A DNA stretch of 64,000 nt from a virus (IMGVR_UViG_3300033074_001257:21405-85404), one strand, 5' to 3'. Shown: positions 1 through 62,561, counted from the first letter of the stretch. Notes: generated from the sequence alone by a model not told the origin. Made by a program: numbers and translations.

Positions 1-2
1 TT

Positions 3-56
3 TCAATCATCGAGTTTCTGAATGAGGTTGATGGGTTGTTGAGTGAGAAGAAGTGA
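3..56 (+). CDS. 3' end of a gene running in from upstream (SIIEFLNEVDGLLSEKK*); possibly the IntN tail of the missing N-terminal terminase fragment
   Basis: Open frame 3..53 ending TGA at 54-56, followed by a terminator-like hairpin. Only 17 codons are visible, so identity is speculative. Confidence 0.3.
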   Translation, partial: SIIEFLNEVDGLLSEKK

Positions 57-64
57 CGCAAACG

Positions 65-88
65 AGCCGCTACCACAGCGGCTTTTTT
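65..88 (+). terminator. Rho-independent terminator-like hairpin
   Basis: AGCCGC-taccaca-GCGGCT followed by a T-tract. Confidence 0.7.
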
Positions 89-126
89 GTGGCTGTAAAA
101 TATGAGAAAGCGCCAAGGTAGATCTC

Positions 127-474
127 ATGTACGTCAAGAACGACCGATACCTCATTGAGACTGATGATGGGTATTGTCACTTTCGCGGAATGAAAAAAGA
201 CACCGCCCATCAAACGATTGACATTGCTTACACGGTGGGCGACGTGGTGGGCAGCATTGAATCAACTTGCGACCATAAGCACTACATCACAAAGACCGAC
301 AGCATCCCCGCCGATCGCGTGGCTGTAGGCGATGTTTTGTACGGCGGTGCAAACACCCAAGGCGAAGTCAAAGTAACCGCTGTCGCGCTAAAAAGCGGCC
401 TCGTCGACGTGTTTGACGTGGTTGACGTGTTCCCACGCCGATCGTTCATGGCCAACGGAATCAAGACATCAAAT
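127..474 (+). other. Split intein C-fragment IntC2 (116 aa)
   Basis: Hint-like motifs: block B TCDH, V.VGD.L, block F DVFDVVDV, terminal ANGIKTSN followed by Cys as +1 extein residue. No N-terminal Cys1 block A. Confidence 0.85.
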
Positions 475-1581
475 TGTGTCTACTTGGACGAATTTGCTTT
501 CGTTGAGAACGCGGACGAATTTTACGCTAGCACTTACCCGACAATCTCAAGTTCTGACAAGACAAAACTAATCATCACGAGCACACCCAACGGCTTGAAT
601 CTGTTCTACAAGATCTTCAGTGAAGCTACCCGCGGACTGAATGCGTTCAAACCCTACCACATCAAGTGGCAAGAGCACCCGCGGCGCGATCCTGCAATCA
701 ACCCCCAGTGGGAGATTGACACTCGCGCAAACATCGGCGCACAGCGATTTCGTGTTGAGTATGACTGTGAGTTCCTGGGCAGCTCAAGGACACTGATAAG
801 CGGTGAAGCACTGGCTAAGCTCACAGCCCAAAACCCGACCCGCACTGAGGGCGACGTCTACAGTGAGTTTGAAGCCCCACAAGAAGGTCGACGGTATGTT
901 CTGATCGTGGATTCAAGCAACGGAGTGGGCTTAGACTACACGGTTTGCAACGTCATCGACATCACCGAAACACCTTACAAGCAAGTGGCAATCTTCCGCG
1001 ATGACAAAACCCCACCACAAGCGGCTGCCATCACGGTGGACCGTTTGTCGCGTCGCTACAATGAAGCACTGGTTGTGGTTGAGAACAATCACGCAAGCGG
1101 AGCACTGATCTTAGACACGCTGTGGTTCACATTCGAGAATGAGAACATCCTGTTCACGAACGTCAACCGCGGCGAGGCAGTTCTTGATGGGCAAGCACGA
1201 AAACAGCAGATGGGTGTCACCACCACTACCAAAACGAAGAGCAAAGGCTGCTCGCGCCTAAAAGATCTCATTGAACACAATTTGCTGTTAATCAACGACA
1301 CGAACACCATTGACGAGCTGATGACCTTTTCACTTGTGAACGGTCGTTATCAAGCTGAGCGCGGCAAGCACGACGACACGTCCATGACACTGGTTCTGTT
1401 CGCTTGGCTCACGGGCGAGGACTACTTTGTCGATCTATATGGGGTGGACGTAAATAAGATTGTTCTTAAAGATTTGAGTGAAGTGAATTTTTTTGGATTC
1501 GTCGATGACTACACAGGACGGTCGGTGAACACGTCTTACTTGCTGCCCGCCTTAAGTAATCGAACTGACTTGATTAAGTAA
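127..1581 (+). CDS. terL: Terminase large subunit, C-terminal fragment (Walker B + nuclease), preceded by a split-intein C-half
   Basis: After aa116: CVYLDEFAF (Walker B), IITSTPNG, EYDCEFLGS, VLIVD..G.G.DY, VVENN, HDD, all typical of T4 gp17-like proteins. No Walker A in this ORF. Confidence 0.92.
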   Translation: MYVKNDRYLIETDDGYCHFRGMKKDTAHQTIDIAYTVGDVVGSIESTCDHKHYITKTDSIPADRVAVGDVLYGGANTQGEVKVTAVALKSGLVDVFDVVDVFPRRSFMANGIKTSNCVYLDEFAFVENADEFYASTYPTISSSDKTKLIITSTPNGLNLFYKIFSEATRGLNAFKPYHIKWQEHPRRDPAINPQWEIDTRANIGAQRFRVEYDCEFLGSSRTLISGEALAKLTAQNPTRTEGDVYSEFEAPQEGRRYVLIVDSSNGVGLDYTVCNVIDITETPYKQVAIFRDDKTPPQAAAITVDRLSRRYNEALVVVENNHASGALILDTLWFTFENENILFTNVNRGEAVLDGQARKQQMGVTTTTKTKSKGCSRLKDLIEHNLLLINDTNTIDELMTFSLVNGRYQAERGKHDDTSMTLVLFAWLTGEDYFVDLYGVDVNKIVLKDLSEVNFFGFVDDYTGRSVNTSYLLPALSNRTDLIK

Positions 1582-1616
1582 TTTGCGAAAACAACCCAAC
1601 GTGAGGGAGAATAAAA

Positions 1617-3353
1617 ATGGCTTTTGGCGTACTGACACAAGAAAAGGACTACCAAAGTTCCGTGGCGAGTCCTGAGGGCAGTGCCGGCGGTATCGCGGGA
1701 ACTTTCACTTGGGGACCGATCGGCGTGCCCCGACTGATTTCATCTGTGAGTGAGCTTGAAAAATCCTTTGGCAAGCCCACCGACGCAAACTTCGCCGATT
1801 GGTTTAGCGCAAGCGACTTCCTGGCATCGTCGAATGCCCTGTACGTGGTTCGCGTATTGCACAGCGGCAGCAACGACGCGAACGCAACTTCAACGGGTGA
1901 CTATGACGCTGAGCGCATGATCCGCAGCGACACCCACTTCAACGTCCTGCAAGCAACCGATGCACTTGACCAGGAGTTCTATGCACGTTACCCAGGTGAG
2001 CTGGGCAACAGTCTGCTGGTTAGCATCGCCGACCAAAGCAACTTCAGCACCTGGGCTTACCGGAACCTGTTTGACCGCGCGCCAAGCTCAACCAACTACG
2101 CGAAGCAAGTGTTCACTAACGCTGGCTCAACCGAAACCCCAAACGACGAGCTGTGCATCGTGGTGGTTGATGCCCTGGGTGAAATCACCGGCGCACCGGG
2201 TACGGTACTTGAAACATTCGCAAACCTCTCAAAATGCCTCGACGCCAAGAGCGACCTGGGCGTCAACAACTATTACGTCTCCACGCTGAACGCTCGCTCG
2301 TCTTACATCTATGCCGGCGTTCCGCTGGGCGGCACCCTGGTGTCGAACACAAACGGCGACAAAGCCGCGTGGGGCACAGCAGCCAAGGCCGGTGTTTCTT
2401 TCGCGCCCATCAACGCCCAGTACACAGTCACCCTGTCGGGCGGCGTTACCGATTCGATCGGCACCGCAAGCGATTATGCTGACGCTTACACTATTCTGTG
2501 TGGGCTTGAGGACAATCGCCTGAACATCATCATCGCCGGCGCTTGTGGTTCCGATGCGCACCGACTGACTGTTCTGCAAGCAATTGAAGCGGGCTGTCTG
2601 AAAAGCGAGAAGCGCGTGGCGTTCTGCTCACCGAAGATCAGTGACTTCCTGCACACCACGCCCGCTGAAATTGAACAAGCCATTCTGGACACTTGGACCG
2701 CGACCACCACCAAAACAAACGTCATGTCGATGGACAACAACGCGAAACTGGTCTATGACAAGTACAACAGCGTATACCGCATTATCCCGTGCAACGCTTC
2801 TGTCGCAGGCGCATGGGCGCGAACTCACGCCAACTACGGCCCGTGGAAATCCGCTGCCGGTTATGTTCGCGGTAACCTGACGAACGTGGTCAAGCTCATG
2901 TACTCGCCTGACCGCCTCGCCATGGAAACCTTCCAGAAGAAAGGCATCAACAACATCATCACCGATGATGGCGCAGTGTACCTGATGGGCGACAAGACGC
3001 TGCAACAGCGTGAAAGTCCCTTCACCTACCTGGGCGCTCGCTTCTTGACCATCTCAATCAAGAACCTGACTCGCGACTCAGCCAAATATACCCTGTTTGA
3101 ATCAAACGACCAGCGCACCCGAAACAACTTCGTGAGCGGCGTCACTCCGCTGCTTGAAAACATTCAAACCCAGGGCGGCTTGCAAGCGTTTCGCGTAGTG
3201 TGTGACGGATCAAACAACGACGCTTACACAGTCTCAACCGGCGGCTTCGTGTGTGACATCGCATTCAAGCCCTACCAGTCCATTCAATGGATCATGCTGA
3301 AATACAGCGTCTTGGGTGCCAACGAGTCATTCGACGAAGTCCTGGGTAACTAA
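1617..3353 (+). CDS. Tail sheath protein (T4 gp18-like)
   Basis: GTFTWGP, FGKP, ARYPGELGN.L.V, PWKSAAG..RG, C-terminal F..N...TR..F and I.FKP motifs; RBS GAGGGAG upstream. Confidence 0.93.
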   Translation: MAFGVLTQEKDYQSSVASPEGSAGGIAGTFTWGPIGVPRLISSVSELEKSFGKPTDANFADWFSASDFLASSNALYVVRVLHSGSNDANATSTGDYDAERMIRSDTHFNVLQATDALDQEFYARYPGELGNSLLVSIADQSNFSTWAYRNLFDRAPSSTNYAKQVFTNAGSTETPNDELCIVVVDALGEITGAPGTVLETFANLSKCLDAKSDLGVNNYYVSTLNARSSYIYAGVPLGGTLVSNTNGDKAAWGTAAKAGVSFAPINAQYTVTLSGGVTDSIGTASDYADAYTILCGLEDNRLNIIIAGACGSDAHRLTVLQAIEAGCLKSEKRVAFCSPKISDFLHTTPAEIEQAILDTWTATTTKTNVMSMDNNAKLVYDKYNSVYRIIPCNASVAGAWARTHANYGPWKSAAGYVRGNLTNVVKLMYSPDRLAMETFQKKGINNIITDDGAVYLMGDKTLQQRESPFTYLGARFLTISIKNLTRDSAKYTLFESNDQRTRNNFVSGVTPLLENIQTQGGLQAFRVVCDGSNNDAYTVSTGGFVCDIAFKPYQSIQWIMLKYSVLGANESFDEVLGN

Positions 3354-3372
3354 CAAAAAAGGAGGGCACTAA

Positions 3373-4011
3373 ATGTCCAACAATGCTGACGTAGGTAAAT
3401 TCTTGAACCAGCTTTCAGGTGGAGGATTTCGCCCAAACCGCTATGAGGTGAATTTCACCTTTCCAAAGGCGATTGACGAAATCACCAAGTACACTCCAAA
3501 TGAGCAGATTTATCCTGAAGGCGCCGACGCCACCCGAGCCAAGGCCAACAACATCACGAACCTGCAAGCCATCAAAGACCACGTCTCTTTCATGGCCAAG
3601 GGCACTAAAATTCCATCGATGCAAATCGGTGAGATTGAACTGCCGTACAAAGGTCGCAAGCTGAAAGTGAACGGCGACGTGACTCTGGATGATTGGGAAG
3701 TTACGCTGATCATGGATTCAAACGGCAAGTCACGCGGCTTGTTTGAATTCTGGATGGAAGCGATGCTGGGTGTTTACACAAACACGACTTCTCGTTCGCT
3801 CATGAACCCCGCGAACTACATGGGCACTGCCACAGTTCGGGCACTCGGTCGTGATGATGAGCTTGAAGCCATCTATGTCCTGTCAGACATCTATCCGAAA
3901 AACGTCGGTGAAATTGCCCTGGCGTGGGACAGCAACGATCAGGTCGCTGAAGTGAACGTGACTTTCGCAGTCAACAACGTCCGCAGCCGCTACACTAAGC
4001 CGCTGGCCTAA
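3373..4011 (+). CDS. Tail tube protein (T4 gp19-like)
   Basis: GGFRPNRYEV, PY.GR.LKV.GD...DDW.VT, YP..VGEI.L.WD.ND; follows the sheath gene. Confidence 0.9.
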   Translation: MSNNADVGKFLNQLSGGGFRPNRYEVNFTFPKAIDEITKYTPNEQIYPEGADATRAKANNITNLQAIKDHVSFMAKGTKIPSMQIGEIELPYKGRKLKVNGDVTLDDWEVTLIMDSNGKSRGLFEFWMEAMLGVYTNTTSRSLMNPANYMGTATVRALGRDDELEAIYVLSDIYPKNVGEIALAWDSNDQVAEVNVTFAVNNVRSRYTKPLA

Positions 4012-4031
4012 TCGCGGGTTAAGTAACAAAC

Positions 4032-4056
4032 AAGCCTCGCAACAGCGGGGCTTTTT
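4032..4056 (+). terminator. Terminator-like hairpin after the tube gene
   Basis: AAGCCTCGC-aaca-GCGGGGCTT followed by T's. Confidence 0.65.
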
Positions 4057-4071
4057 GTTGGGAGTCTATTC

Positions 4072-4410
4072 GTGCGCAAGTTTACAGAAATGCAGATCGT
4101 TGACGATTACGAGGTTTTGACCGATAAAGGTTTCGTTGACGTGCAAGCTATCATGACAACTGTCCCCTATATCGTTCACGTGCTGGTGACAGACGCCGGT
4201 CACTTTTTGTACGCAGCAGACGATCACTTGTTGATTGACGCAAACGGCGACACTGTAGCAGTCAAAGACGCCTTGAACAAAACGATCAAGGTGAACGGCG
4301 GCACCGCAACTGTCACACATGTAATTGAGACTGCCGAACGTGTGCCCATGTACGATTTGCAGATCGCTGCACCGCACACGTTCTACACGAACGAAATCTT
4401 GAGCCACAAC
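4072..4410 (+). other. Split intein C-fragment IntC1 (113 aa)
   Basis: YEVLTDKGF, block B ADDH, block F PMYDL, terminal FYTNEILSHN followed by Thr as +1 residue. Confidence 0.88.
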
Positions 4411-4821
4411 ACTACCACAGTGGCGGGCTACCTGCTTCACTTGGCCATGTTCAATGAAGACTATTCCATCGCCATCCTAGCCAACAAGAAGTCGCAAGCA
4501 ACCGAAGTCCTAGATCGCATCAAGACGATTTATGAATGCCTGCCCTGGTGGCTGCAAATTGGCGTTCGCCGATGGAACGTGGGGGACATTTTGCTGGACG
4601 GGGGTAAGAAGGGTTCGAAGATCTCAACCTCAGCAACCAAGGGCGGCGGCATTCGGGGTAAGTCGGTCAACTGCTTGACTGGAACCGCGAGAGTGCGCGT
4701 ATACGACACGTTCACCGGCGTGGTGGAGGACTTGTGCCTGAGTGACCTGTACAACCGCCTTAGAGCGCACGAGATTGCCAGCAATCGCCCTTCACAGGAC
4801 ACAACCCAGGCGATAAAATGA
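4072..4821 (+). CDS. terL: Terminase large subunit, middle fragment: IntC1 - ATPase extein (87 aa) - IntN2
   Basis: aa114-200 (TTTVAGYLLH..AILANK..QA.EVL.RIK..YE.LP.WLQ.G...WN.G.I..RGKSVN) match the T4 gp17 region between Walker A and Walker B. Flanked by intein halves. GTG start preceded by GGGAG. Confidence 0.9.
   Translation: MRKFTEMQIVDDYEVLTDKGFVDVQAIMTTVPYIVHVLVTDAGHFLYAADDHLLIDANGDTVAVKDALNKTIKVNGGTATVTHVIETAERVPMYDLQIAAPHTFYTNEILSHNTTTVAGYLLHLAMFNEDYSIAILANKKSQATEVLDRIKTIYECLPWWLQIGVRRWNVGDILLDGGKKGSKISTSATKGGGIRGKSVNCLTGTARVRVYDTFTGVVEDLCLSDLYNRLRAHEIASNRPSQDTTQAIK
4672..4821 (+). other. Split intein N-fragment IntN2 (about 30-aa core plus 19-aa tail)
   Basis: CLTGTARVRVYDTFTGVVEDLCLSDLYNRL is a block A motif starting with Cys1, followed shortly by a stop codon. 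Confidence 0.85.
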
Positions 4822-7109
4822 AGAACATCCAAGACACGTTGGTTGAGATGGGTCCATCGGCGCTGTTTCTGTTTGATGCGGTGAATATGATCGTCGAACC
4901 TGACAGTGAAACGCCCGCGGTGCTGTTCTTTGACTTGAACGACAGTAGCAAGTATCTGGCAGGCCACTTCATCCAGCATCAAGGATTGGCGGACGTGCCC
5001 ACCCTGCTCGGTGCCACTGCCCAAAACAATTCACTGTGTCGACCGTCGCTCGTCGTGGGTTCAGAGATCAGCAACAACGTCATCTACAAACGGTGGTACG
5101 AATACACAGCAGCAAGCAAGCAAAAACTTTTCATGAACTTTGCGGTGACGGGTTCATCAAACGCGAAAGCCATTCGCTTGAACAACAAGGGCAGGGTGAT
5201 TGAAAACAACAACCCCTTCGACGTGGTCGCGGGCGGTAAGATTGTCCTGAAGTACCAGAGTGGTCAATCAACGTACAACTTTCTGGCTAAGAAAGAATCG
5301 ACCGTGTACGACGACGTCGTGACAATAGAGTGTGAGTATGACGCGGGCGGCTATTACACAGGCAGCCCCCCAAACTACGTTGAGGTCATGTCGTTCAGAT
5401 CTGCGAATTCGGTGCTTGTGATGCCCGATGGCACAGCCACTTTTCACGTCACGATACCTGAGAGCGGCACTTACCGCGTTTTCATCGAAGGGCTTGACTT
5501 CACTTCCCAGCACACAGTCATGAACTTTGATCCGCAAATCAAGCACCCACGAGTGTTCACGGTGACGCTAAATGAGGACGGGTCGTTCACGCACAGCGCA
5601 AGCGACCCAAAGGTAAGTGTCGCGAAAGTGTCCAGTACCCTTTTTGAAGTCACAGTGAGCGACCTCACATGTACCTACATCAGATACCACTGCGACGACG
5701 ACTTCTACACAATCGAAAACATCTACACGATAGACAGCAACGGCGTTAAAAGAACACTCGGGTGCAACGAAAACAGGCTTGTCGTGAAGGGCGACTATTT
5801 TTATGTTGAATTGGCACTAAAAACGCCCATCACCTTATCTGATGTCAAGCTAGAGGACACGGTCGGCAGCACTCAATTTGACGTGTTCGGCACCCTCGTC
5901 ACGCTAACCGAACAAGGCAGCAACTGGGTGTCACTCAAGTGCGGTAACCTGACGCTGCCTGTCGCGTGTGACGTGGGCCATTCGCTGTACCTTGCAAACA
6001 ATGAACTTTGGCTTGACGGCGTCGCTTACCCATACATACCAGACACAGGCTTCGTGTCGAACACACTCACGCTCGGTCGGCGACAAAAGACGTGGTTTGG
6101 TGAAAATCATGATACCCTGCTCGTCAGAATCAACAACCTGTCTTTGTTTGACCGTGACCTCACGCCCAGTGAAAAGTACATGCTTCTTGTGAGGAGCTGG
6201 TCGTTTGAATCGTTCATGGCCCTGAGCGGCGCGTATAACCGGGTACACTTTGGCAACAGCAAGTCGCGCGTGGTCAACTGTGATCACGGGAGCTTTGTGA
6301 TTGACTACAAAGCCATGCCGCAGATTGTGAAGTTCAGCAACTACTTGAAGCACGGTCGGCAGTTTATCGGGCGCGGCGGCGTCCACCTCGTGAGCGCGTC
6401 TGACGGCAGCACGGGTGCCTCACCCATCGGATACAACTTCACAGACTTCGGCGGCGACGCGACGCTGTTCATCGTCTTTTCGTATGCGCGGGGCGACAAC
6501 TTCATAATCTACAGCGACATGAATCGCTCACAGCCGTTTAACGGCCTTGCCATCGGACTGTACGGCGGTCAATTGAGGCTGTGGCAGAACAACAACATCA
6601 ACGACACGGGCATCACACTCACACCGGGCGTGGCGTCTGTTCTGACTTTGCGAAAGAAAGACAACTTGCTCACCGTCACAGTGTACCACGAAACATCAGG
6701 TGAGGTGTTTAGCAAGCGCACCGCGACAATCGACGTCGTCACACCCATCAACATGAACGGCGTCCTGTCAACGCACTTGCTGTCCACCACACACGAAATT
6801 GATGACGTCGATGTGACACTCAGCGCCCTGTACAGTTTCAACCGAGCCTTAGATCCACTGCTGCTGGACATCCTGTGCATGAACCCAACCTTGTTTGCAG
6901 TGCAGGGCTTGTTACTTGAAAACAATCAGCCGCAAAGCGGCAACGTGTTTTTCTTCGACCACAATTCAGGTGAGTACCTAGGGCGGGTGAGATCAGACAG
7001 CACGGGACATTTCACATATCGCGAAGACGTTGAGCGCGACTTAAATATCACCGTGAGCCTTGAGTCTGGCGCACAAATTACCGCCCCGGTACGGAGTGTC
7101 ATCGTCTAA
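4818..7109 (+). CDS. Putative virion/tail-associated protein with LamG/ConA-like segments
   Basis: 763 aa, beta-rich. NLSLFDRDLTPSE and LYSFNRALD resemble LamG C-terminal motifs. Start overlaps the upstream stop (ATGA). Confidence 0.5.
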   Translation: MKNIQDTLVEMGPSALFLFDAVNMIVEPDSETPAVLFFDLNDSSKYLAGHFIQHQGLADVPTLLGATAQNNSLCRPSLVVGSEISNNVIYKRWYEYTAASKQKLFMNFAVTGSSNAKAIRLNNKGRVIENNNPFDVVAGGKIVLKYQSGQSTYNFLAKKESTVYDDVVTIECEYDAGGYYTGSPPNYVEVMSFRSANSVLVMPDGTATFHVTIPESGTYRVFIEGLDFTSQHTVMNFDPQIKHPRVFTVTLNEDGSFTHSASDPKVSVAKVSSTLFEVTVSDLTCTYIRYHCDDDFYTIENIYTIDSNGVKRTLGCNENRLVVKGDYFYVELALKTPITLSDVKLEDTVGSTQFDVFGTLVTLTEQGSNWVSLKCGNLTLPVACDVGHSLYLANNELWLDGVAYPYIPDTGFVSNTLTLGRRQKTWFGENHDTLLVRINNLSLFDRDLTPSEKYMLLVRSWSFESFMALSGAYNRVHFGNSKSRVVNCDHGSFVIDYKAMPQIVKFSNYLKHGRQFIGRGGVHLVSASDGSTGASPIGYNFTDFGGDATLFIVFSYARGDNFIIYSDMNRSQPFNGLAIGLYGGQLRLWQNNNINDTGITLTPGVASVLTLRKKDNLLTVTVYHETSGEVFSKRTATIDVVTPINMNGVLSTHLLSTTHEIDDVDVTLSALYSFNRALDPLLLDILCMNPTLFAVQGLLLENNQPQSGNVFFFDHNSGEYLGRVRSDSTGHFTYREDVERDLNITVSLESGAQITAPVRSVIV

Positions 7110-7118
7110 ATCAAACAG

Positions 7119-9383
7119 GTGAAGATAAAAGTGAATGACAACGACCTGACTTTTATCTTCACCTACAGCGACGACCCCACAGAGTCGACGGACTATAAAA
7201 GCGGTTTTATTACGTTTTACTTCAAGAATAACCGCTTTAAGCACAGCGACATAGTTTTTATCTTCACGCCTGGGGGCGACACACACGACCCAAGCGACAG
7301 CGAAATCATCTTCGTCTTTAACCCATCAACGGGTCCGTCAAGCAAAATCCCACAACAGGCGTTTGACGGCGCACAATCGCACTTCAACATCTATCGCGAG
7401 CGCAACCTTAGCGCACAAGTGAACGACGGCTTGAAGTCGACGCTGACACTAAACACCTCACCCATCGTTCGCTTGCCGATGCAAGCATATGACGGGCAAT
7501 CAAGTGCCGCTCGCGTTTCAATACAGGTCAACTTTTCACCGAGCGCACAACTGGGATCCAGCACCCAGAACTTCACGCTCATCCAGCCCGTTGTGAAAAC
7601 GCTTGAGCTGACCGCGTCTGATTCAACCACGAGCTATGCGAGAGTCACGGCCGCGTGTGGCGTGTCGCTTGCGCTAAGCCACGGGGTGCAATCTACTGCC
7701 GCCATCACCAAACCGCCCGCCCAAACGATTAAGTTTGACGCTTACACAGGCACGCACGCACAAACAACACTTGTCGCGACCGCTGCTTTGAAAACCGTCG
7801 CTTGTGTGGGCGATGTTGTGTCCTTGGCGCTGTCTCAATCGCCCCACGTGACACTCACAGCATCAGATGGACACGTCGCACGCATCAACGAACTTGCTGT
7901 TCCTGGGTCTGCTGCTTTGCAGCTACTTGCCGCAAGCGGTGAGCACGCCCACACCACAATCTCAATTGAACCGCACTTAAGCGCACTTGCACACGACGGC
8001 AGTGAAGCTGTCTTTGAAATCACCGACAGCCCAACGTCAAGCATACACTTTGATTTCGCGCTCGGTGAAAAAGCATCGGCGTCGCTGTCAAAAGACATCC
8101 TGATCTCAACAACAGCCAAAGACGGTTACCGCGCAAGTTTGAACCTGTTGTCGCGTGATGCGTGGCGCATTGAAACCCAGGGCTTGATGTCGTTTGCCAC
8201 TGCCGCTCGCATAGCACCCAGCTACGGGCTCAAGGTAAAAGGCTTAAGCGGCGAGTCTGTGTCGATTGCACACTTGAGTGAGAACGATCGCTTCGTAGGT
8301 CGCGAGGGCACCTGTGTTGGCTTCTCGCTGTCAAGTGAAGTGACTTTCCCCGAGCACTACTTCCACGGTGAACACGCGTCAACTGAGCTGACACTTCGCC
8401 CGCCCGTCACTTTGGGTCAATCGGCCACAGACGGCAGTTCATCTGAATTCAATTTGCGGGTCATGATCTCAGCTAAACTGCCCATGGCGGCGTCGTTTGA
8501 AGCTTCAAGCCACATCCGAACCTTCAAAACACTCTACATTGACTTGAACTACAACACTTGCTGTCCCCTGACCGACCGTTCGTTTGATGTTGATCTGCGA
8601 CACGGCAACGACAACAATCGTTACGGGGCCAACTTTGAACTCACGACTTACCCAGCAACGCCGCAAGCGATCACCCACAACATTGCTAACAACAGCAACC
8701 AGACAAACTTTGGCGCTGCGTCGATGCGCCTGTCGGTGGTTCGCTTCATGTCGTTTAAATTTGCTTCAGGTGACGAATCAAAACTCTACAGAAAGCCACA
8801 AGCGTCGATTGAATTGCTTGCGCACAGCGGACAGTCTGCAAAGATGACGTTGACGCACCACTACAACGTGGACCTGACGCGCGGGGCGACACTGACGCTT
8901 GGCAACGTGGTCATCGAAACCAAAAAGCCCTACTTCACCCTAGACACTTTTACCCACACGGCGTCAATGGGCCAAGCGGCGCACTTGACCCTAAGCACTG
9001 CCCAGGGCCTTAGGTTCGTTCACCGGTACGCGGCAAATGAAGCGAAAATGATACTTCGGCGCGAACGGTTTGCTTTTAAAGCTGCTGAGGGCACTCGATC
9101 AGATTTTCCGCTTCGAACCCAAGTCCATGTTGAAGTCGATGCTCACATGGGTACCAGGAGTTACTTTGATTTCGTTCGTGACAAACACTATGCCGCAATG
9201 GGGTCCACCATGACGTTTAGCATCGACACCGAATACGACGTCGCCATCACGGACCCTGACTTGTGTCTCACGAACCAATACGTGGCGACGCTTAGCGACG
9301 GATCACCTGACCTCAACAACACCTTTGACGTGGCAGTTGAGGCTTTGCCCTTTACCCACTACATTGACGCGGAGTGTTTTTAA
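7119..9383 (+). CDS. Putative structural protein with degenerate internal repeats
   Basis: 754 aa, Ala/Ser/Thr-rich, recurring A-x-[DS]-G-x-x-[AS] motif; lies in the baseplate cluster. Confidence 0.55.
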   Translation: MKIKVNDNDLTFIFTYSDDPTESTDYKSGFITFYFKNNRFKHSDIVFIFTPGGDTHDPSDSEIIFVFNPSTGPSSKIPQQAFDGAQSHFNIYRERNLSAQVNDGLKSTLTLNTSPIVRLPMQAYDGQSSAARVSIQVNFSPSAQLGSSTQNFTLIQPVVKTLELTASDSTTSYARVTAACGVSLALSHGVQSTAAITKPPAQTIKFDAYTGTHAQTTLVATAALKTVACVGDVVSLALSQSPHVTLTASDGHVARINELAVPGSAALQLLAASGEHAHTTISIEPHLSALAHDGSEAVFEITDSPTSSIHFDFALGEKASASLSKDILISTTAKDGYRASLNLLSRDAWRIETQGLMSFATAARIAPSYGLKVKGLSGESVSIAHLSENDRFVGREGTCVGFSLSSEVTFPEHYFHGEHASTELTLRPPVTLGQSATDGSSSEFNLRVMISAKLPMAASFEASSHIRTFKTLYIDLNYNTCCPLTDRSFDVDLRHGNDNNRYGANFELTTYPATPQAITHNIANNSNQTNFGAASMRLSVVRFMSFKFASGDESKLYRKPQASIELLAHSGQSAKMTLTHHYNVDLTRGATLTLGNVVIETKKPYFTLDTFTHTASMGQAAHLTLSTAQGLRFVHRYAANEAKMILRRERFAFKAAEGTRSDFPLRTQVHVEVDAHMGTRSYFDFVRDKHYAAMGSTMTFSIDTEYDVAITDPDLCLTNQYVATLSDGSPDLNNTFDVAVEALPFTHYIDAECF

Positions 9384-10957
9384 TGGCCACTTGTGTGCAA
9401 ACGATTGAGGGCGGCAGCGTAACCCCCATCGCCAACAACTACACGGGTGAAGTTTCACTGGACGCTTCAGCCAACCGCGTCTTTAGCTTTTCGCTTGAAA
9501 CTTCACTCACCGTTTATGTGAAGCTGACTTTTAACGCATCGACCACGCCCCTCAAGAACGTCGCTGTGACGCTGCTGAATGCTAGCAAGGGCATCATCAC
9601 CACAACCACGTTCAAAGAAACGAGCGGCTTCCAGACCACTTTGCAGCGTGGCGAATATTACATTTGCTTGCGAACACTGATTGGGTCTTACGCGCTCACA
9701 CTGAACATGAGCACACTCATTTACCGAAGTGACATCACGATACCGATGGTTGCAGCAAGCGGCACGCAGTCGTCGTTTAACTTGAAAGTTCTGAAGCCCA
9801 GGGTTAAATGCACCCAGCCCATGAAGTTTGAAATCATCGACGGCTCGCTGCCGCCCGGGCTAACATTCAACGAAGCGGGGCTGATCAGCGGCACTGTCCC
9901 GGTCATCGACACACTCGGTCTGCTCAAGATACCCAGTGCCAATTTGATGGTTCCCCTCGAAAACGAAACCCTCGCCCTGTCGCTTCAGTGGTTCTTCACC
10001 GTTAAGGTCTCGCTGCTTAGCAACCCATCAAGATTTGACACCAAAAGGTTTTGCTTGCAGCTATACAACAACAACAGCCTATCCATCCACGAACACACAG
10101 ACGGCGAAGCTAACACGCAGTACCACTATGAGCGTGAGACTGTACATGTACACCCCGAAACCACGCTGTGTGGAACCGACGGCATAAAGCCCATCACCCA
10201 AACGCGACTGGTTGACTTTGTGAAGGCGTACACATTGCCCGATAACGTGGATCCTCGCGTGATATCGGCACTGCATATGCCCATCCCATACGATGTTACC
10301 GCCCTGGGCTTAAACAGCCACGATCGCGCTAAGAACTGGGCTAGCGACGGCACGCTTCAAGGTGATGCACTTCAAGGTGATGCGCTAGCACAAAACATGG
10401 TTGAGTTCATGGGCGCTGATTTCTTTGAGGTTGACAGCAGCGGCGAGTATGAAAGCATCGACGTGCCGTTCACCAGCGAGAGTGATGCTTTCGTGGTGCC
10501 GTTTGCAGTCTCAGACGTTACTGATGTCAAAGCGTATGTCACAACAAACTTAAGCGACGTCTTGGCCCAGGGCGTAGACCGTGACATCATTGACCGCTGG
10601 ATGGTCGGTGACGCGTCAATCACTTGTGAACTTCGGCCCCTAGACGTTTACGGGCAGGCGGTGGGTGACTTCAACACAGACGGCGACAGCAGTGAAGTGA
10701 TTGACGACGAACCGCAGGACGAAACAACGGACGAGCTGCCTTTGTTGCCCCTAGACAAATACGGCAACGAAGTGCCGATTGACTTGACGAAAGTGGGTGT
10801 CGTGGCCCAAACGCTTGTTCTGATTACTGGGCAGTACATGGACGAAGTTGACCCCGCGTTCATTTTTGAGAAATCATTCTCAGACATGATAAATTCCCTA
10901 GACGAATTGTTCCTTAATAGTTTTGACGGGCTAACAAGCTACGCGACACTGAAGTGA
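9383..10957 (+). CDS. Putative baseplate/structural protein with an Ig-like (putative Ig) domain
   Basis: FEIIDGSLPPGLTFNEAGLISGTVP is the typical putative-Ig motif; acidic C-terminus; TAATG overlap with the upstream gene. Confidence 0.55.
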   Translation: MATCVQTIEGGSVTPIANNYTGEVSLDASANRVFSFSLETSLTVYVKLTFNASTTPLKNVAVTLLNASKGIITTTTFKETSGFQTTLQRGEYYICLRTLIGSYALTLNMSTLIYRSDITIPMVAASGTQSSFNLKVLKPRVKCTQPMKFEIIDGSLPPGLTFNEAGLISGTVPVIDTLGLLKIPSANLMVPLENETLALSLQWFFTVKVSLLSNPSRFDTKRFCLQLYNNNSLSIHEHTDGEANTQYHYERETVHVHPETTLCGTDGIKPITQTRLVDFVKAYTLPDNVDPRVISALHMPIPYDVTALGLNSHDRAKNWASDGTLQGDALQGDALAQNMVEFMGADFFEVDSSGEYESIDVPFTSESDAFVVPFAVSDVTDVKAYVTTNLSDVLAQGVDRDIIDRWMVGDASITCELRPLDVYGQAVGDFNTDGDSSEVIDDEPQDETTDELPLLPLDKYGNEVPIDLTKVGVVAQTLVLITGQYMDEVDPAFIFEKSFSDMINSLDELFLNSFDGLTSYATLK

Positions 10958-11130
10958 AGGGTGGTGTTCATTGAAAGAAAAGATCGTCGTGAATGTGGTG
11001 CATGACGTGGCGGGCATTGACATCAGCAAGACGCTACGCAACAAGAAAACTGCCGCGCACCCACAACAAGCCCAACAGTACGAAGCCAAACAACGCGAAG
11101 CCAAACGGCTCGAAAGTGGGGGGAAGTAAA

Positions 11131-11439
11131 ATGGGACTTGGGGCAGTGCGCAAAGGCGATTGGAACATGGGCCATGGGCCGTACATGCCTACGAAAGCTA
11201 ACTCGTGCAGCGGCAATGTTCGCATCAACGGCAAAGGGGCAGTGCGCAAAGGCGACGCTTTCAAAGAGCACAAGCTGGGCAAAAAGAAGCACACGGATTT
11301 CCCCGTGACTGGATCGGCCACAGTTCGCATCAACGGCAAGCCCGCAGCTCGCAAACTTGATGCCATCAGCGACCCAACTCGCCTGAAGTGCAGTAGCATC
11401 ATCATCACCGCGTCGCGCAACGTGAAGGTGGGGCCATGA
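11131..11439 (+). CDS. PAAR spike-tip protein (T4 gp5.4-like)
   Basis: AVRKGD...GH, NVRINGKGAVRKGD...H, VRINGKPAAR..D...C...S.NV.VG. Start placed at ATG 11131 rather than the ORF-track start 10993. Confidence 0.88.
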   Translation: MGLGAVRKGDWNMGHGPYMPTKANSCSGNVRINGKGAVRKGDAFKEHKLGKKKHTDFPVTGSATVRINGKPAARKLDAISDPTRLKCSSIIITASRNVKVGP

Positions 11440-11804
11440 AGTCAAGTGACATTGATTTGTCTTTCGCCAAGACTGCCGGTGGAGACATTGGTTTGATTGA
11501 AGGCGACGACGCAGTTAAGCACGCCATCAGTCGACTGATTACCACAAACCTTCACGACTTGGCTTTCAACGACGTCCTCAGGTTCAACATTCGAAACTAC
11601 TTGTTTGAAGAAGCGAACCAGATGGTCTTTGGTGAGATTGAGCAAAAGATTCACCACGTCCTTGAATACCACGAGCCGCGCATCAAAGTAAAAGACGTGA
11701 ACGTGCAAATTCTGACCGGCAACGGTATCGACATCAACATTGTGTACACAGACACCGTGACGGGTGTCGTCAAGACATTCGACAACTCATACGGGGCCAA
11801 ATGA
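11436..11804 (+). CDS. Baseplate wedge protein (T4 gp25-like)
   Basis: DIDLSF...GDI...AVK.AI..L, LFE, I...L..HEPRI.V.DV. Confidence 0.85.
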   Translation: MKSSDIDLSFAKTAGGDIGLIEGDDAVKHAISRLITTNLHDLAFNDVLRFNIRNYLFEEANQMVFGEIEQKIHHVLEYHEPRIKVKDVNVQILTGNGIDINIVYTDTVTGVVKTFDNSYGAK

Positions 11805-13543
11805 CCATGCAACTTGATGCCAACTTTGACGAGATTAAGCAATACCTGGTTGCGAGCTTCAAGGGCAATGAAAAGTTCAAAGACTACAACTTTGAAGGCA
11901 GCAACCTGTCGGCTTTGGTTGACATCTTAGCGAGGAACACTTACTTCAACATCTACTTCATCAAGATGCTGTTCAACGAAATGGTGCCCAGCACCGCGAG
12001 CAACCCAGACAGTTTGGTTGCCCATGCGCTGCGACACGGCTACCTCATTAAGAACGCACACCCGAGCATGGCGCGAATCAAGGTGACTGCGAAAGGCACT
12101 GCACAAGTCCAGTATGTCACCGTTCCGCTGGGCACACTTTTTGCATCAACCACACCCGACAACACACGAGTATCTTTCATCACACTAGAGCAGCACACAT
12201 TGACCGATCGCAACGCCGACGGTGATCTGACGGGTGAGATTTCAATTTATGAGGGTACGTTCAAGTCAACCACGTTTCGCGCTGCCGGTGAAGTGACTTA
12301 CACTTACATGTTAGACGACCCCAACATCGCGGTTGATTACCTGTTCGTTGAAGTGGCCAAGGGCGGCGGACAGAAGTTCACGAAATTCACGCGCTACAAC
12401 AACACGGCCCCAAACAAAGACGACAACGTCTATTACATGAAATTCATCGGAGGCCATTATCACATCTTCTTTGGCGGCAACCAGTTTGGGTATCAGCCGC
12501 AGCTGGACGAGCTCATCAAAGTGACCTACTTCATCACCAACGGCAGTGCAGCCAACACCGCGTTCGTGTTTGAACCCATCATCGCAACATCAACCGACAC
12601 AACCGACATCGGTCACTACGCGGTTGAGGTTGAAACGCTTAGCATGGCCAGCGGCGGGCAGTCGTCGGTTGATTACAATGTCCTGGGCACGATCCTCACG
12701 AACTTCAATCGCGTGAGTTCGGTTGCAGTGACACCAGAAGATTACAAGTACGCGGTCCTGGACAACTTCGGGGACATCGGTTCGATTGCGGTTTGGGGCG
12801 GGGCATCAAACAGCAACAGCGTAGACAATGACGCGTCACAGTACGGCAAACTGTTCATGTCCATCAAGCCCAAAGGCAGCGATACGCTGTCCAACGCTGC
12901 CAAAGAAGCCATTGCAAGCTACTTGCAAAAAAACCACGCGATCGTGGGTCAGTCCATTGTGTTCGTTGATCCAAAATACATTGACCTTGACATCGACATC
13001 ACCGCAACGCGCACGAAAGAAGGGCGCGACGTCAACGGCGAAACCATTCGCACAAACATCATCAAGCGGAGCGACGAGTTCAGCAAAAACGAACTCAACA
13101 CCTTCGACAGCGGCTTGTCGTTCTCACGCTACCAGAAGGTCGTGTTCGACGGCTACAGCGACATCCTCTATCGCGTGAACACACGCATCACGCTGAGCCA
13201 CACGGTCAAAATCACTTCGCTGAATCAAAACTACGTCGTTGACTTCAAGAACGACCTGAGTTCGTTTAGAAGCGAAGTGTTCACTTACGGCAACAACGAC
13301 GCGTATTTCACTGTCTTGAATCCAGCATCAGGCAAAGTGGCGATTTCGCTTGTGGTGAACGGTGTCGTGAGTAACGGAACCTTTGGTACCGTTGATTTCG
13401 ACCGCGGCGTGGTGACGCTTTTTGTGCCCGACAACACCATTTCGCGCACCCTCACGCTGAAAGTCACCACGCTATCAAATGACCTGGGTGTCAGTAAGAG
13501 CAACATCCTTCGCATCAAGAACACAAGCGTCACGCTACAGTGA
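11801..13543 (+). CDS. Baseplate wedge protein (T4 gp6-like)
   Basis: NFDEIK..L...F......DYNFEGS.LS.L.D.LA.NT, FGGN.FG..P, AVT..DY. Confidence 0.9.
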   Translation: MTMQLDANFDEIKQYLVASFKGNEKFKDYNFEGSNLSALVDILARNTYFNIYFIKMLFNEMVPSTASNPDSLVAHALRHGYLIKNAHPSMARIKVTAKGTAQVQYVTVPLGTLFASTTPDNTRVSFITLEQHTLTDRNADGDLTGEISIYEGTFKSTTFRAAGEVTYTYMLDDPNIAVDYLFVEVAKGGGQKFTKFTRYNNTAPNKDDNVYYMKFIGGHYHIFFGGNQFGYQPQLDELIKVTYFITNGSAANTAFVFEPIIATSTDTTDIGHYAVEVETLSMASGGQSSVDYNVLGTILTNFNRVSSVAVTPEDYKYAVLDNFGDIGSIAVWGGASNSNSVDNDASQYGKLFMSIKPKGSDTLSNAAKEAIASYLQKNHAIVGQSIVFVDPKYIDLDIDITATRTKEGRDVNGETIRTNIIKRSDEFSKNELNTFDSGLSFSRYQKVVFDGYSDILYRVNTRITLSHTVKITSLNQNYVVDFKNDLSSFRSEVFTYGNNDAYFTVLNPASGKVAISLVVNGVVSNGTFGTVDFDRGVVTLFVPDNTISRTLTLKVTTLSNDLGVSKSNILRIKNTSVTLQ

Positions 13544-14930: not shown

Positions 14931-16002
14931 TTCAATTCTAAACAACAGTGCGGTCACTGTTTATCTCGGACACAGCAGTGGCGGCACTTTTGACACCCAC
15001 AACATCAAGTATGATGCGCCCATCAGCAACGTCACGAAGTCAATTGCCGTAGACATCAATCGCTACACGGCAAACGACATTCTGAACACTTACCCAAGTG
15101 AAAAGTCCTATTACCTGTCTGGCGATGACATCTACATTTGCTTGTCCAACAACGGCGGCAGCCCATCAACAGAAGCTCCGCACTCAAAATCAAAGCTGAA
15201 CATCAAGACAGACGATGGATACGTTTGGCGCTACCTGTGCAGTGTGTACGCAAGAAGCGAATTGAAGTATCTGCGGCTGCCGCGAAGCACTGGAACTGTA
15301 CCCATCAAAACCCCCATCGCTTCACTCGTCGCGCAACCGAGCACCCTGAACTTCACAAACACACTGCGACACGTGGTTTATAGTCAATACGGCCGCAATG
15401 CCACATTCGTATATGACGAGGGCAGCGACGGCAAAGTCAAGAACATCACAGTCGCTTTGGGCGGCAGCGATTATCGAAACCGTGATGTTTTTCTGATTAG
15501 CGACAACATGGAAACCCCACACACCCTGCCCACTTTCACCACAAGTCTCAATGAAGGTTCGATTGACGCAACGCTGCTAAACGGCGGCAGCGGCTTGAGT
15601 GAGTGCAAGATCCACGTGGTGGGTGACGGCACCGGCGCTTCTGTCACTGCCACGCTGGTCGGCAGTTCAGTTGGCACCATCAACGTCACGCCCGGCAGCG
15701 GCTACACGTGGTTCAAGTTGGTGCCGGCACCGTCCATCAACTCATTTGCCACCCACGTCATCACGGAACCCAAGAACGGAATCGGGTTTAATATCATCGA
15801 CGATGTGAAGCCACTGAAGCTATTGTTCACTGTATTCCTTGATAAAGTCACAGACGGCGACATCTTGAACTTTGCCGCAATCGGCAACAAGCGCAAGAAC
15901 GACAGTGAGAACCCAGAGATTTATAGCGTGGCGTGGTTTGATGATGTGGTGCTAGATGCACAGTCACAGAACCAACTCAAAATCATCATTTCAGGAGAGT
16001 AA
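14911..16002 (+). CDS. Baseplate wedge protein (T4 gp8-like)
   Basis: IYICLSNNGGSPST.AP......TDDGYVWRYL motif. Confidence 0.75.
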   Translation: MERILIDSILNNSAVTVYLGHSSGGTFDTHNIKYDAPISNVTKSIAVDINRYTANDILNTYPSEKSYYLSGDDIYICLSNNGGSPSTEAPHSKSKLNIKTDDGYVWRYLCSVYARSELKYLRLPRSTGTVPIKTPIASLVAQPSTLNFTNTLRHVVYSQYGRNATFVYDEGSDGKVKNITVALGGSDYRNRDVFLISDNMETPHTLPTFTTSLNEGSIDATLLNGGSGLSECKIHVVGDGTGASVTATLVGSSVGTINVTPGSGYTWFKLVPAPSINSFATHVITEPKNGIGFNIIDDVKPLKLLFTVFLDKVTDGDILNFAAIGNKRKNDSENPEIYSVAWFDDVVLDAQSQNQLKIIISGE

Positions 16003-16003
16003 C

Positions 16004-19000
16004 GTGGAATTCAATAGCGCACCCTACTTCGACGATCATGATTTCACGAAGAACTACAAGAAAATTCTGTTCAAGGCGGGTGCCGCAATCCAGGCGCGTG
16101 AGCTCAACCAGATCCAGTCCATCTTTCAAAGTGAGATTGGCACGTTCGCCGACCACATGTTCAAGAACGGTTCGAAGATTTCAAACTGCCGCACCGCATT
16201 CACGCGAAAGTCTTACGTTCGCGTTGAAGCCAACGACATTGACGGCAACGCGATCATTGAACCCCAGGGCATCATTCGCGTGTTTGGCGTGACGTCAAAG
16301 GTTGAAGCCACCTACAGTGGATTTGCACGCGCAAGCGACAGCGACCCTGACACCCTGTTCGTGCAGTACACTAAGGCGGGCGGCGACAACGGCGACGTCA
16401 AGACGTTCTTGCACGGTGAGCATCTGCAAATTTGTGATGAGTTTGGTAACATCCTGTACACCTGGACAGTTCGCTGCCCAACTTGCGTCAATTCAACGTC
16501 CGTGGGTGAAATTTCGCCCACAGGCGAGACCATGTTCTACACGATTGACGAGGGCGTGATTTACTACAACCAGATGTTCATTGCGGTCAAGCGTCAAGAG
16601 ATCATCATCACCAAATACATGACGTTTGATGCTAACAACATTCCACTTGAGCCCCGTAGTTTTAAAGTGGGTCTTGATTTCATCGACAGTGTCGTGACGG
16701 TGGCCCAGGACGAGTCGCTGTACGACAACTCACTCGGGTGGCCCAACGAGGGCGCACCGGGCGCCGACAGGTATTTCGTTGAACTGAAGCTCGTGCAGCG
16801 TTCATACGACGACGATGACGGTGAGCGTTTTATCCTGCTGGCCAAAGTCCAGCCCAACTACCGAGTGACGTTTTCACGAGAAGATGTTGAGTACGGCAAC
16901 ATCATGCGCGAGATGGCACGACGAACGTACGAGACCAATGGAAACTTCACGGTGGCACCTTTTACGGCGACGTTCTTAGAAGCGCGTAAACGCCACGAGA
17001 GTGACAGTCTCGGGTATATGCTGAACGGACGTGAAGATCAGATCGTCGCCGAAGTCAATCCAGGTATCGCTTACGTTAGCGGATACCGCGTCAGTGAGAG
17101 CGATAAAGTCGCCATCATGATTGACAAAGCACGCGACACCGCAAAGCGCCGACACCAAACCACGCGACTGATGCCGTTTCGCTATATTGAGGTGGATGTT
17201 GTAAGCAACGACTTGTTGGTCAGTGGCGCTGCCAGCAACGACATCCTAGATCAAACGCTGCTGACCGCCTACGACAATTACGACACGGCCACCAACCAGC
17301 CCAGCGGCAACGTGGTGGGCACGCTTAAGGTGATCGACCAGCAGCGGTTAAACAGCAATCGCTTCGCCCTGTACCTGTATGAAATCAACATGAACGCCGG
17401 CAAGCAGATCAGCGACATTCGCGGCGTCAAGACTTCAAATAATCGCTTCGTGGCAAAAGCGATCTTGACCGACGGCAAGTGTGTTCTGAACAACGCCGAC
17501 AAAGACAGCCTGCTTTATAGCATGGGCAGTGATCTCGTGGTGAAGTCACAGCGTTCAATCGACGACAGCACGCGCGGCAGCATCCAAGTCCAACTGCGGC
17601 GGAAGTACAAAGGCACAGCAGACGCTGCCGGCGTGATCACATTCACAAGCACGCCCCTTGAATCATTCCAAGCGCACAACGACAGCAACAACTTCCTGAA
17701 CGTGGACGGCGTCACAGTCGCACTCACACCGTCGCAAATCAGTGTCGTGGACAACACACTGATGATCACCGGCTTGACTCCGCACGCGACTGTCGTCTAT
17801 CACGCCACGGTTGAAAAGTACAACCAGACGGAAAAGACCAAAACGCTGGTCACGTCCACAGTGACATTCCCATACGACGACACCAAGAACATCGGTGACG
17901 CCATTAACTTGCAAAAGGCTGACGTGTTCAAAATCAAGTCAATTAGCTTGATTGAAGACAACAATGTGAACTTTGTTCCGATTGATGTGATGGATCAGTT
18001 CAAGCACGTCAGAGGCGACACGCCTTTCTATTACGGTGTGGACACTTTGCAGCGCGTGAAAACGCACGGACCGCTCACTGGAAGCTTTTCACTGCGGGTG
18101 ACGTTTGACTACTTCGACCACAGCGGCGCCCAGGGCTATTTCACGATCGACAGCTACATGAGTTTGGTTGAACAAAACATCATCACCTACAGCGAACTCA
18201 TGGAATACGTCATTTTCCAAAATGACCAGTTTAAGGCGGACGTGACTTTCGTTGACTTTAGGCCCCTCTACATCAACGGACAATTTACGTCTGTTAGCGT
18301 TCCGCTCCAAGGCAGCTCGTTCGTCAGTGACATCGAATACTACTTGGGTCGCGCTGACCTCATGCAAATCACGAAAGACCAGAAGATCACAGTGAAGCGT
18401 GGCGTGCCGGCAATCAATCCGACGCCGCCGGTGGTAGATGAGGGCGCGATGGCGCTTTATGAGATCTACTTGGGTGCCTTCACTTTTAGCGCCGCAAACA
18501 GCGTCCGGACGAAGTTTATCGACAACCGCCGCTTCACCATGAAGCAGATTGCCGCGTTTGATAACCGCATCAGCAAACTTGAATATTACACAGCACTGAA
18601 CGCCCTTGAAAGCGACACTGTCAACATGTCCATCACAGACGAGAATGGCCTAAATCGGTACAAGAACGGATTCATCGTTGATGGGTTCAAGAACTTCCAA
18701 GCCTGTGACATCACCTACAGCGAATATGCCTCTTGCATCGACCGCGAGCGCGGTGAAATGCGACCGCCGTTTGCCATGTACCACCAGCCCATGGCACTAA
18801 ACGCCCAAAAGTCACAAAACATTCGGGTGTTTGGTGGCATCGCTTTGGGCGATTACGATGAGGTTGAATTCAGCGGCAACCCCTACGCCACAAAGACAGT
18901 GAGCATCAACCCATACCTCGTTCCTGTTCGCAAGGGCACTCTCGTGCTAACACCCAACGTTGACACTTGGAGCGACACCCAGAAGCTGCCGCACATTGTT

Positions 19001-22207: not shown

Positions 22208-22503
22208 TATCCACAGCACAAGCCAGCAACTTACAACAGGGTGACAGATGTTGCCCTTTTGTTTGGCTGTGCTTGCAATTGCCCAAAGCCAATCTCACGC
22301 GCACAGCGGCGCATCAAAGCGAATTGTGGTAACAATGCACCACCGACGACAGTGATGCGCCTTAAACGCCACGAGATTGCCAGCAATCTACCCTGAGCAC
22401 GCTCACGTGGCGTGTGTTTTCACCCAGCAGCAGCGCGACTGCTCAAAAACGCTGTCTCAAGGGTGCTAAACTACCTCACACAATTGAAGGGTAGAGGTTT
22501 CAC

Positions 22504-36611: not shown

Positions 36612-36670
36612 ATTGACGCCGCATTTGCGATTGTCGTGTGCCTTGCTATAGTAAGAGTTTTAATGCGAAG

Positions 36671-47595: not shown

Positions 47596-47653
47596 AACGC
47601 TCGTCCGACACCACCACATCACAAACGATCAATAAAATTATTCACAAAATAGC

Positions 47654-62543: not shown

Positions 62544-62561
62544 AATTATTTAAAAAAACGC

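Follow-up and report, generated by a model that had tools for sequence, protein, structure and literature searches.

The window considered here is a stretch of 64,000 nucleotides of viral DNA, corresponding to bases 21405–85404 of an 85,404-bp virus contig from a metagenomic assembly held in IMG/VR (IMGVR_UViG_3300033074_001257), and all positions given below are those of the window. The contig is 41% complete according to CheckV, and the window contains structural genes typical of a large T4-like myovirus, those recognised being for sheath, tube, baseplate wedge, portal, scaffold and major head protein. Near its 5′ end are two open reading frames (ORFs) on the plus strand, at 127–1581 and 4072–4821, each of which encodes a different part of a T4-type large terminase subunit (TerL) together with regions that resemble halves of split inteins. 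We consider it likely, on the strength of sequence comparison, that these are two of at least three genes jointly encoding one gp17-like TerL, the products of which are joined by two split inteins, whose N-terminal and C-terminal halves we refer to as IntN and IntC.

Two pieces of a large terminase

The ORF at 127–1581 encodes a protein of 484 amino acids (aa), in which the 116-aa C-terminal half of split intein 2 (IntC2; 127–474) precedes the portion of a T4-type large terminase that extends from Walker B to the nuclease. IntC2 contains the block B motif TCDH and the block F motif VFDVVDV and ends in KTSN (GIKTSN). It is followed directly by the C-extein (residues 117–484 plus the stop codon; 475–1581), which opens with a cysteine at the +1 position and comprises the Walker B strand, the rest of the ATPase and an RNaseH-like nuclease. 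Residues 114–229 of the protein match positions 96–213 of the Pfam model Terminase_6N, with a match to Terminase_6C after it, and residues 117–441 align to residues 251–566 of T4 gp17 (3EZK) with E = 2e-49. In the gp17 alignment this piece is unbroken from Walker B to its end, and the Walker B strand reads CVYLDEF, compared with MIYIDEC in gp17.

The ORF at 4072–4821 encodes a middle piece of 249 aa, with a GTG start codon and a GGGAG ribosome-binding site 7 nucleotides (nt) before it. Its first part is the 113-aa C-terminal half of split intein 1 (IntC1; 4072–4410), with ADDH at block B, a MYD motif and the end ILSHN; its second is an 87-aa middle extein running from T114 to N200 (TTTVAGYLLH...GGIRGKSVN; 4411–4671), which is the ATPase segment from the Walker A threonine to just before Walker B; and its third is the short N-terminal half of split intein 2 (IntN2; residues 201–249 plus the stop codon, 4672–4821), which begins with Cys201 in the motif CLTGTARV and whose stop codon overlaps the ATG of the next gene. 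Residues 114–199 match positions 11–97 of Terminase_6N and residues 113–198 align to gp17 166–248 (E about 1e-13). In an AlphaFold model of the middle piece, with a mean predicted local distance difference test score (pLDDT) of 78.8, the ATPase part matches the gp17 ATPase (2O0H and 3CPE) with a root-mean-square deviation of about 1 Å over 76 columns.

On the Pfam model as on gp17, the ends of the two exteins come within two residues of each other. Break 1 falls between Walker A Lys166 and Thr167 of gp17, where N113|T114 of the middle piece aligns to K166|T167, so that the +1 residue of intein 1 is the Walker A threonine and the position is the classic P-loop insertion site; break 2 separates gp17 residues 250 and 251, immediately ahead of the Walker B strand. 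A first-pass annotation of this DNA had read the two ORFs as IntC1 ending SHN/T, an 87-aa ATPase segment, IntN2 and a stop, and as IntC2 ending TSN/C followed by Walker B and the nuclease, and had noted that the joined exteins give a normal gp17-like Walker B region and that the middle piece begins right after the Walker A lysine. The reading frames, the Pfam matches and the gp17 alignment bear out each of these statements.

The later, C-terminal piece lies 5′ of the middle piece on the same strand, and the two are separated by genes for the tail sheath (1617–3353, plus strand; phrog_23, E = 2e-81, with Pfam sheath domains) and the tail tube (3373–4011, plus strand; phrog_45, E = 1e-45), an order that had already been reported and that we confirm. 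Joining at the level of RNA, by trans-splicing introns or a frameshift, is rejected, as full intein halves with their catalytic residues stand exactly at both protein junctions. The same order occurs in contigs from three other data sets, which speaks against the misassembly raised as a possibility with the original description. An 11-kb Logan contig from wastewater spans 628–7200 and a 7.6-kb Logan contig from activated sludge spans 1–4705, while the ENA contig ERZ650308.3 NODE-3 (145,495 bp, 89–92% nucleotide identity), compared over 20.7 kb around the match, has the exonuclease, C-piece, sheath, tube and middle piece in this succession. In the nearest IMG/VR relatives, G001 and G002 (39–44% identity), the IntC2 piece likewise lies about 2 kb 5′ of the middle piece, and since the layout is common to all three the rearrangement is probably old in this lineage.

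Intein identity of the flanking regions

Profile comparison identifies both N-terminal regions of about 115 aa as true C-terminal halves of inteins, complete but for the first ~30 residues of the HINT domain, and the intein-profile and gp17-alignment check proposed at first pass thus came out in favour of inteins joined to continuous exteins. A profile of 29 middle pieces (A1) matches the gp41-1 intein 6QAZ (E = 1e-10), VidaL 6VGV (7e-9) and the Cat IntC 6DSL_B (5e-8), with the matches setting in about 12–43 residues from the start of the solved chains. A second profile, of ten IntC2 regions (A3), matches the Cat IntC 6DSL_B with E = 4e-17 over residues 17–113, nearly its whole length, and then some 25 other inteins; the IntC2 of the window is a divergent member of this set, at 22–34% identity, and scores 50 bits against a profile of the nine others built without it. 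As single sequences, IntC1 reaches E = 0.05 against the Cat IntC, IntC2 has as its sole match among PDB sequences a weak DnaE intein (E = 0.18), and IntN2 alone has no match among PDB sequences. A fold search with the AlphaFold model of the middle piece returned VidaL, Cat and gp41-1 at probability 1.0.

The residues expected to carry out splicing are conserved. Asn113, Thr114 and Cys201 are invariant in the 29 middle-piece homologues, and the block B threonine and histidine of IntC2, its terminal Asn116 and the +1 residue Cys117 are invariant in the ten sequences, across homologues that are 40–55% identical. IntC1 and IntC2 have no detectable pairwise similarity (BLASTP E = 0.36), which suggests orthogonality, as expected of two pairs that do not cross-react. 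The atypical geometry of a short IntN and a long IntC, as first described, holds for both inteins as far as they are present: IntC1 and IntC2 measure 113 and 116 aa, and the model of IntN2 has a core of about 30 aa, with strands at 207–211 and 218–222 and a helix at 223–237, and then a disordered tail of 19 aa (pLDDT <50 at 236–249).

The last ~19 codons of the middle piece are probably read-through regulatory DNA of the next gene. They contain a 31-nt element (4756–4786, plus strand) that starts directly after the residues DLYN and has an 87% identical copy in an intergenic gap at 22358–22388; a promoter-like site lies 3′ of the element, at 4791–4819; and synonymous divergence from the ENA relative is 0.06 in the part of the ORF that holds the element, as against 0.36–0.57 elsewhere.

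The predicted N-terminal piece

Searches of the 85-kb contig by motif, by protein and by profile did not find the N-terminal subdomain of TerL or its Walker A P-loop (SRQxGK). A scan of all six frames for the Walker A motif gave unrelated matches only, a translated search with a T4-like N-terminal part and a search with a profile of 24 N-piece sequences found no N-piece, and no other TerL was identified on the contig. The search suggested at the outset, for an ORF ending in RQxGK-C plus a short IntN, likewise found none there. A 62-aa ORF ending at window position 56 was considered as the tail of an IntN1 and rejected, having neither a TerL N-domain nor a Walker A motif. We attribute the missing piece to the contig being 41% complete, and infer that piece 1 exists in the 59% of the genome that lies beyond it.

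The third gene that the first-pass annotation had called for, supplying RQxGK|C and a short IntN, is therefore lacking on the contig, but it is seen in exactly this form in gp534 of Salicola phage SCTP-2, in the complete 381-kb genome of G002 and in at least 403 N-piece clusters of a collection of 5.8 billion proteins. In the loci examined, 36 distinct N-pieces end in RQxGK|C followed by an IntN1 of 31–66 aa with the consensus C....T.I.IRNK.TGEI..I.IGEFYE, nearly all of them located just upstream of their own IntC1 gene. Most of the N-pieces in the databases are single proteins of 115–155 aa.

Relatives and prevalence

Two complete genomes of relatives have their pieces scattered. In SCTP-2 (MF360958, 440 kb), two of them are on the minus strand: gp534, an N-piece of 130 aa ending ARQLGK|CVDYETNITVRHKETGEE, which is encoded at 429 kb between the genes for thymidine kinase and DNA ligase, and the C-piece with its IntC2, encoded at 216–218 kb. 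The plus strand has the middle piece, gp267, at 256 kb. In GenBank both gp534 and gp267 go by the bare label 'terminase large subunit'. In G002, an IMG/VR genome with terminal repeats, pieces are found at 328, 198, 195 and 38 kb, and four pieces also occur in G001 and G004. Both complete genomes were searched with the C-piece of the window and with N-terminal TerL queries, SCTP-2 also with Pfam Terminase_6N, and they yielded pieces only; an intact contiguous terL, one of the findings that the earlier annotation had named as speaking against it, was seen neither in these genomes nor on the contig.

Both genomes have additional inteins. The SCTP-2 C-piece (L086:1–1962, minus strand) has an IntC2 that ends in glutamine rather than asparagine (NVSQ|CDEFAF), and it also contains a large contiguous intein (PTIS|CLAPGT...LGSN|TGGKCIITTTP), giving a terminase with two split inteins and one whole intein. 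In the N-piece of G002 (L172:1045–1989, minus strand) a whole mini-intein (CVTGDT...ILSN) follows PRQMGK and is succeeded by the split IntN1 (CIDGDSMVTL) with zero extein residues between them, so that two inteins stand in tandem at one P-loop site. G001 and G002 use a third split-intein site, with the sequences QEIN|C and SHN|CSFLGSS. Cys214 of the ORF at 127–1581 (766–768, in VEYD|CEFLGSS) is at the exact +1 position of this site, which points either to an intein since lost or to a homing site that stands empty.

Positions 1–5000 of the window gave no megablast match to GenBank phages, and a scan of IMG/VR with the middle piece as a single protein found none. A word-indexed protein search returned 33 clusters of middle-piece relatives, and an exhaustive HMMER search returned 674 clusters (50% identity, E <= 1e-30) that have the IntC1–extein unit; about 17 of the best 150 clusters are stand-alone proteins of 234–297 aa that cover both intein halves. 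From an alignment-based scan of IMG/VR 80 loci were kept, and a stand-alone middle piece (234–256 aa) is present in 12 of them; in others IntN2 is joined to an endonuclease, in others again site 1 holds a whole intein, and still others are split at site 1 only. The multi-piece terminase layout is common in metagenomes. The insertion point of the second intein varies among three positions no more than six residues apart: RGKS|C, RGKSVN|C and RG.S..LLY|C. In two further proteins, P0028 and P0033, the second piece runs from IntC1 through Walker B to FNQE..|C and then a short IntN, and the second break can therefore fall at the third site instead of at Walker B.

Proposed mechanism

In the reading that we favour, piece 1 would supply the N-terminus of TerL up to the Walker A lysine and an IntN1 of ~30–45 aa starting with cysteine. 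Each short IntN would dock on its own long, partly folded IntC and complete the HINT fold. Class 1 splicing by IntN1 and IntC1 (Cys1, Thr+1) would then join K|T and rebuild the P-loop, and class 1 splicing by IntN2 and IntC2 (Cys1, Cys+1) would join N|C and rebuild the strand leading into Walker B. The product would be a full-length gp17-like ATPase–nuclease, neither active-site motif of which would exist before splicing. Such a scheme requires the pairs to be specific, since the middle piece, having the order IntC–extein–IntN, would cyclise if its own halves paired, and the middle extein would be left out if IntN1 paired with IntC2.

Neither piece has an endonuclease gene beside it, and the inteins are therefore probably immobile. 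Since the pieces have moved apart, the inteins cannot be removed, nor an unbroken gene restored, by a precise deletion, and the phage would thus depend on them.

Evidence to the contrary and alternative explanations

One competing explanation is that the terminase comes in more than three pieces, with the N-terminal region that is missing here itself broken again or bearing extra inteins, as in relatives. Precedent is provided by the whole mini-intein directly before IntN1 in G002, by the four pieces of G001, G002 and G004 and by the extra contiguous intein of SCTP-2. Nevertheless the C-piece of the window is unbroken and most database N-pieces are single proteins, and we regard this as unlikely.

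Several points weigh against a terminase assembled by two splicing reactions at all. IntC2 has a serine where the penultimate histidine would be (KTSN), and IntC1 has an alanine in place of the usual block B threonine. The IntN1 consensus (C...T.I.I.NK.TGE...I.EFYE) resembles that of IntN2 (C..GDT.VTL.H.ETGE.F....LYE), and on this evidence cross-pairing between the two inteins is conceivable. For the phage of the window, piece 1 was not found on the incomplete contig and an intact terL could conceivably lie elsewhere. Finally, the splicing activity and pair specificity of both inteins are what we infer from their sequences. The penultimate histidine is common, not universal, in active inteins; it is present in IntC1 (SHN), and the nearest relatives of IntC2, those of G001 and G002, end in IRN and VKN.

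The two missing residues are what could be said for an explanation in which the intein halves serve only as high-affinity docking domains and the motor is a non-covalent complex formed with no splicing. This we find quite improbable: the nucleophiles and terminal asparagines are all kept and are invariant across the homologues, the breaks lie in the P-loop and directly before Walker B, where leftover intein domains of ~145 aa would block the ATP site, and the related Cat, AceL and GOS TerL inteins are described as splicing in the review PMC11766414.

It could also be argued, with 59% of the genome outside the contig and piece 1 not found, that the two ORFs are decaying remnants and that an intact terL in the remainder does the packaging. 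Comparison with the ENA relative speaks against this. The ratio of nonsynonymous to synonymous substitution rates (dN/dS) is 0.01–0.07 in the exteins (middle extein 0.013, C-extein 0.065) and 0.02–0.22 in the inteins (IntC1 0.024, IntC2 0.22), values that show purifying selection on both pieces rather than decay. Three diverged relatives have intact reading frames, the uncompensated indels of the two Logan relatives being solely in intergenic gaps (1589, 3354 and 4016), and the two complete genomes of relatives, searched with the queries named above, gave pieces with no whole terL, so that we give the remnant explanation very little credence. Last, misassembly or a chimeric contig is barely conceivable as the source of the out-of-order layout, for although the source is a metagenomic assembly and the region holds one short repeat (4756–4786), the contigs from three other data sets bridge all junctions at 89–96% identity and G001 and G002, which are more distant, also have the C-piece 5′ of the middle piece.

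Relation to known systems

The individual parts of this system are of known kinds, but we found no paper on a TerL that is multi-piece, scattered and out of order. The nearest characterised inteins are GOS-TerL, AceL-TerL and the consensus intein Cat (PDB 6DSL), which, according to the review PMC11766414, have an IntN of 25–37 aa and an IntC of 104–122 aa that holds all blocks but the first, with the short disordered IntN folding onto a partly folded IntC. The inteins of the window resemble them in having a T4-type gp17 host protein, the atypical split geometry and, in intein 2, the Cys1 and Cys+1 of a class 1 intein. GOS and AceL, however, involve a single break with the halves on neighbouring genes, whereas here there are two unrelated inteins, non-adjacent halves and the later piece first; unlike the atypical TerL inteins, IntC2 also has a serine at the position of the usual penultimate histidine.

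Fractured genes, as described by Dassa, London, Stoddard, Schueler-Furman and Pietrokovski in 2009 (PMC2677866), consist of an N-terminal part with IntN, a free-standing endonuclease gene and an IntC with the C-terminal part, collinear on one strand, and one such locus is a gp17 terminase whose IntC, at 122 aa, is unusually long. The likeness is that the gene for an essential phage enzyme is broken by a split intein, but the locus of the window has no endonuclease and no adjacency, and its order is reversed. Two relatives (L008 and L027) do have the collinear fractured layout, but with a GIY-YIG endonuclease fused to IntN rather than free-standing. The insertion point in the window, N|C (gp17 250|251), is two residues away from the RG.S|C point of these GIY-YIG-linked relatives.

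Contiguous inteins are known at the same two places. TerL1-a and TerL1-e are P-loop and Walker B inteins of mycobacteriophage terminases (Kelley et al. 2016, PMC5050341), and in a tblastn search residues 3–202 of the middle piece match, at ~41%, terminases with whole inteins in LIMEstone-like Dickeya phages and related phages of Salmonella, Serratia and Shigella. As at the TerL1-a and TerL1-e sites, intein 1 lies between the Walker A lysine and threonine and intein 2 at Walker B; in contrast to these and to the LIMEstone-like inteins, which are in one piece and splice in cis, those of the window are split and would act in trans. SCTP-2 and G002 have the same three kinds of piece, scattered across both strands of the genome, with the same junction motifs. 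Their middle pieces are only 36–44% identical to that of the window, and they differ from it in further inteins: an extra contiguous one in SCTP-2, and in G002 a third split intein as well as the tandem mini-intein.

Three-piece trans-splicing with orthogonal split inteins has been engineered, for instance by Shi & Muir 2005 (as cited in PMC11766414), and triple-vector dystrophin is another such design (PMC11271493). These share with the locus of the window the IntC(a)–extein–IntN(b) form of the middle fragment and the use of two pairs that do not cross-react, whereas the locus is natural and both of its pairs are atypically split. Natural protein trans-splicing has been described for single breaks, in DnaE and in the fractured genes (PMC2677866). 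In the full-text literature on split inteins and terminase, paywalled intein papers aside, we found no description of a natural protein that needs two or more split inteins or of a scattered terminase, and papers that mention both SCTP-2 and inteins do not describe its split terminase. That the layout is unreported is unproven, and the caution on novelty expressed at first pass was apt: it is unremarked in GenBank and common in metagenomes, with no describing paper found.

If the favoured reading is correct, an essential enzyme would need two consecutive trans-splicing reactions, both inside its ATPase active site, with the pieces of its gene apart and out of order. An intein that can no longer be lost by simple deletion would be a plain example of a selfish element becoming irreversible. 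From a practical point of view, these phages would be a source of many natural pairs with a short IntN (~30 aa) that are necessarily orthogonal in one cell, which are sought for multi-site protein labelling. There is also a consequence for annotation, as pipelines label the pieces 'terminase large subunit' several times over or overlook the 120-aa N-piece, and for large phages such errors can mislead phylogenies built on terminases and bias estimates of genome completeness.

Candidate expression signals around the pieces

Just upstream of each terminase piece is a terminator-like hairpin, and these two are the strongest of their kind on the plus strand in the first 7.2 kb of the window. The first (64–84, plus strand) has 8 pairs, of which 5 are G-C, followed by a T-run with the tail TTTTGTGG, and is 43 nt upstream of the C-piece; the second (4032–4053, plus strand) has 9 pairs, 6 of them G-C, and follows the tube gene. 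With such a hairpin in front of it, each piece may depend for its expression on read-through or on a promoter of its own. As each piece is behind its own hairpin, and as piece 1 may sit in a different gene module, as it does in SCTP-2, the two orthogonal atypical split inteins could conceivably act as a natural three-input AND gate or timer, by which the motor forms only when several expression classes overlap, and the scatter of the pieces would then be more than an accident preserved by chance. We put this forward tentatively and think it rather unlikely; if true, it would represent a naturally evolved orthogonal pair of short-IntN inteins.

Other features of the window

Upstream of the C-piece are genes for a primase and the exonuclease, and a small terminase is not among them. 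Large proteins with no family match flank the middle piece both in the window (4818–7109 and 7119–9383) and in G002 (L091:8064–9950 and 10683–12716). Judged by eye, the two flanking proteins of G002 are similar to one another and their C-terminal ends resemble that of the 763-aa protein of the window; all of these may be paralogous structural or fibre proteins. A 2083-aa ORF (15956–22207) in the baseplate and tail region matches phrog_358, of unknown function. Directly 3′ of the major head protein gene (35323–36558) is a homing-endonuclease or HNH-like gene (36638–37804; phrog_655, E = 3e-31).

Two sets of repeats were also seen. A tandem array at 62445–62554 consists of about 10 units of the 11-nt sequence TGGGCTTCGCA. 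An AT-rich repeat family of 50–67 nt, ending GTGTACTATAA, has copies at 47635, 50167, 62543 and 63135, one of which adjoins the 11-nt array, and this family looks like a repeated promoter.

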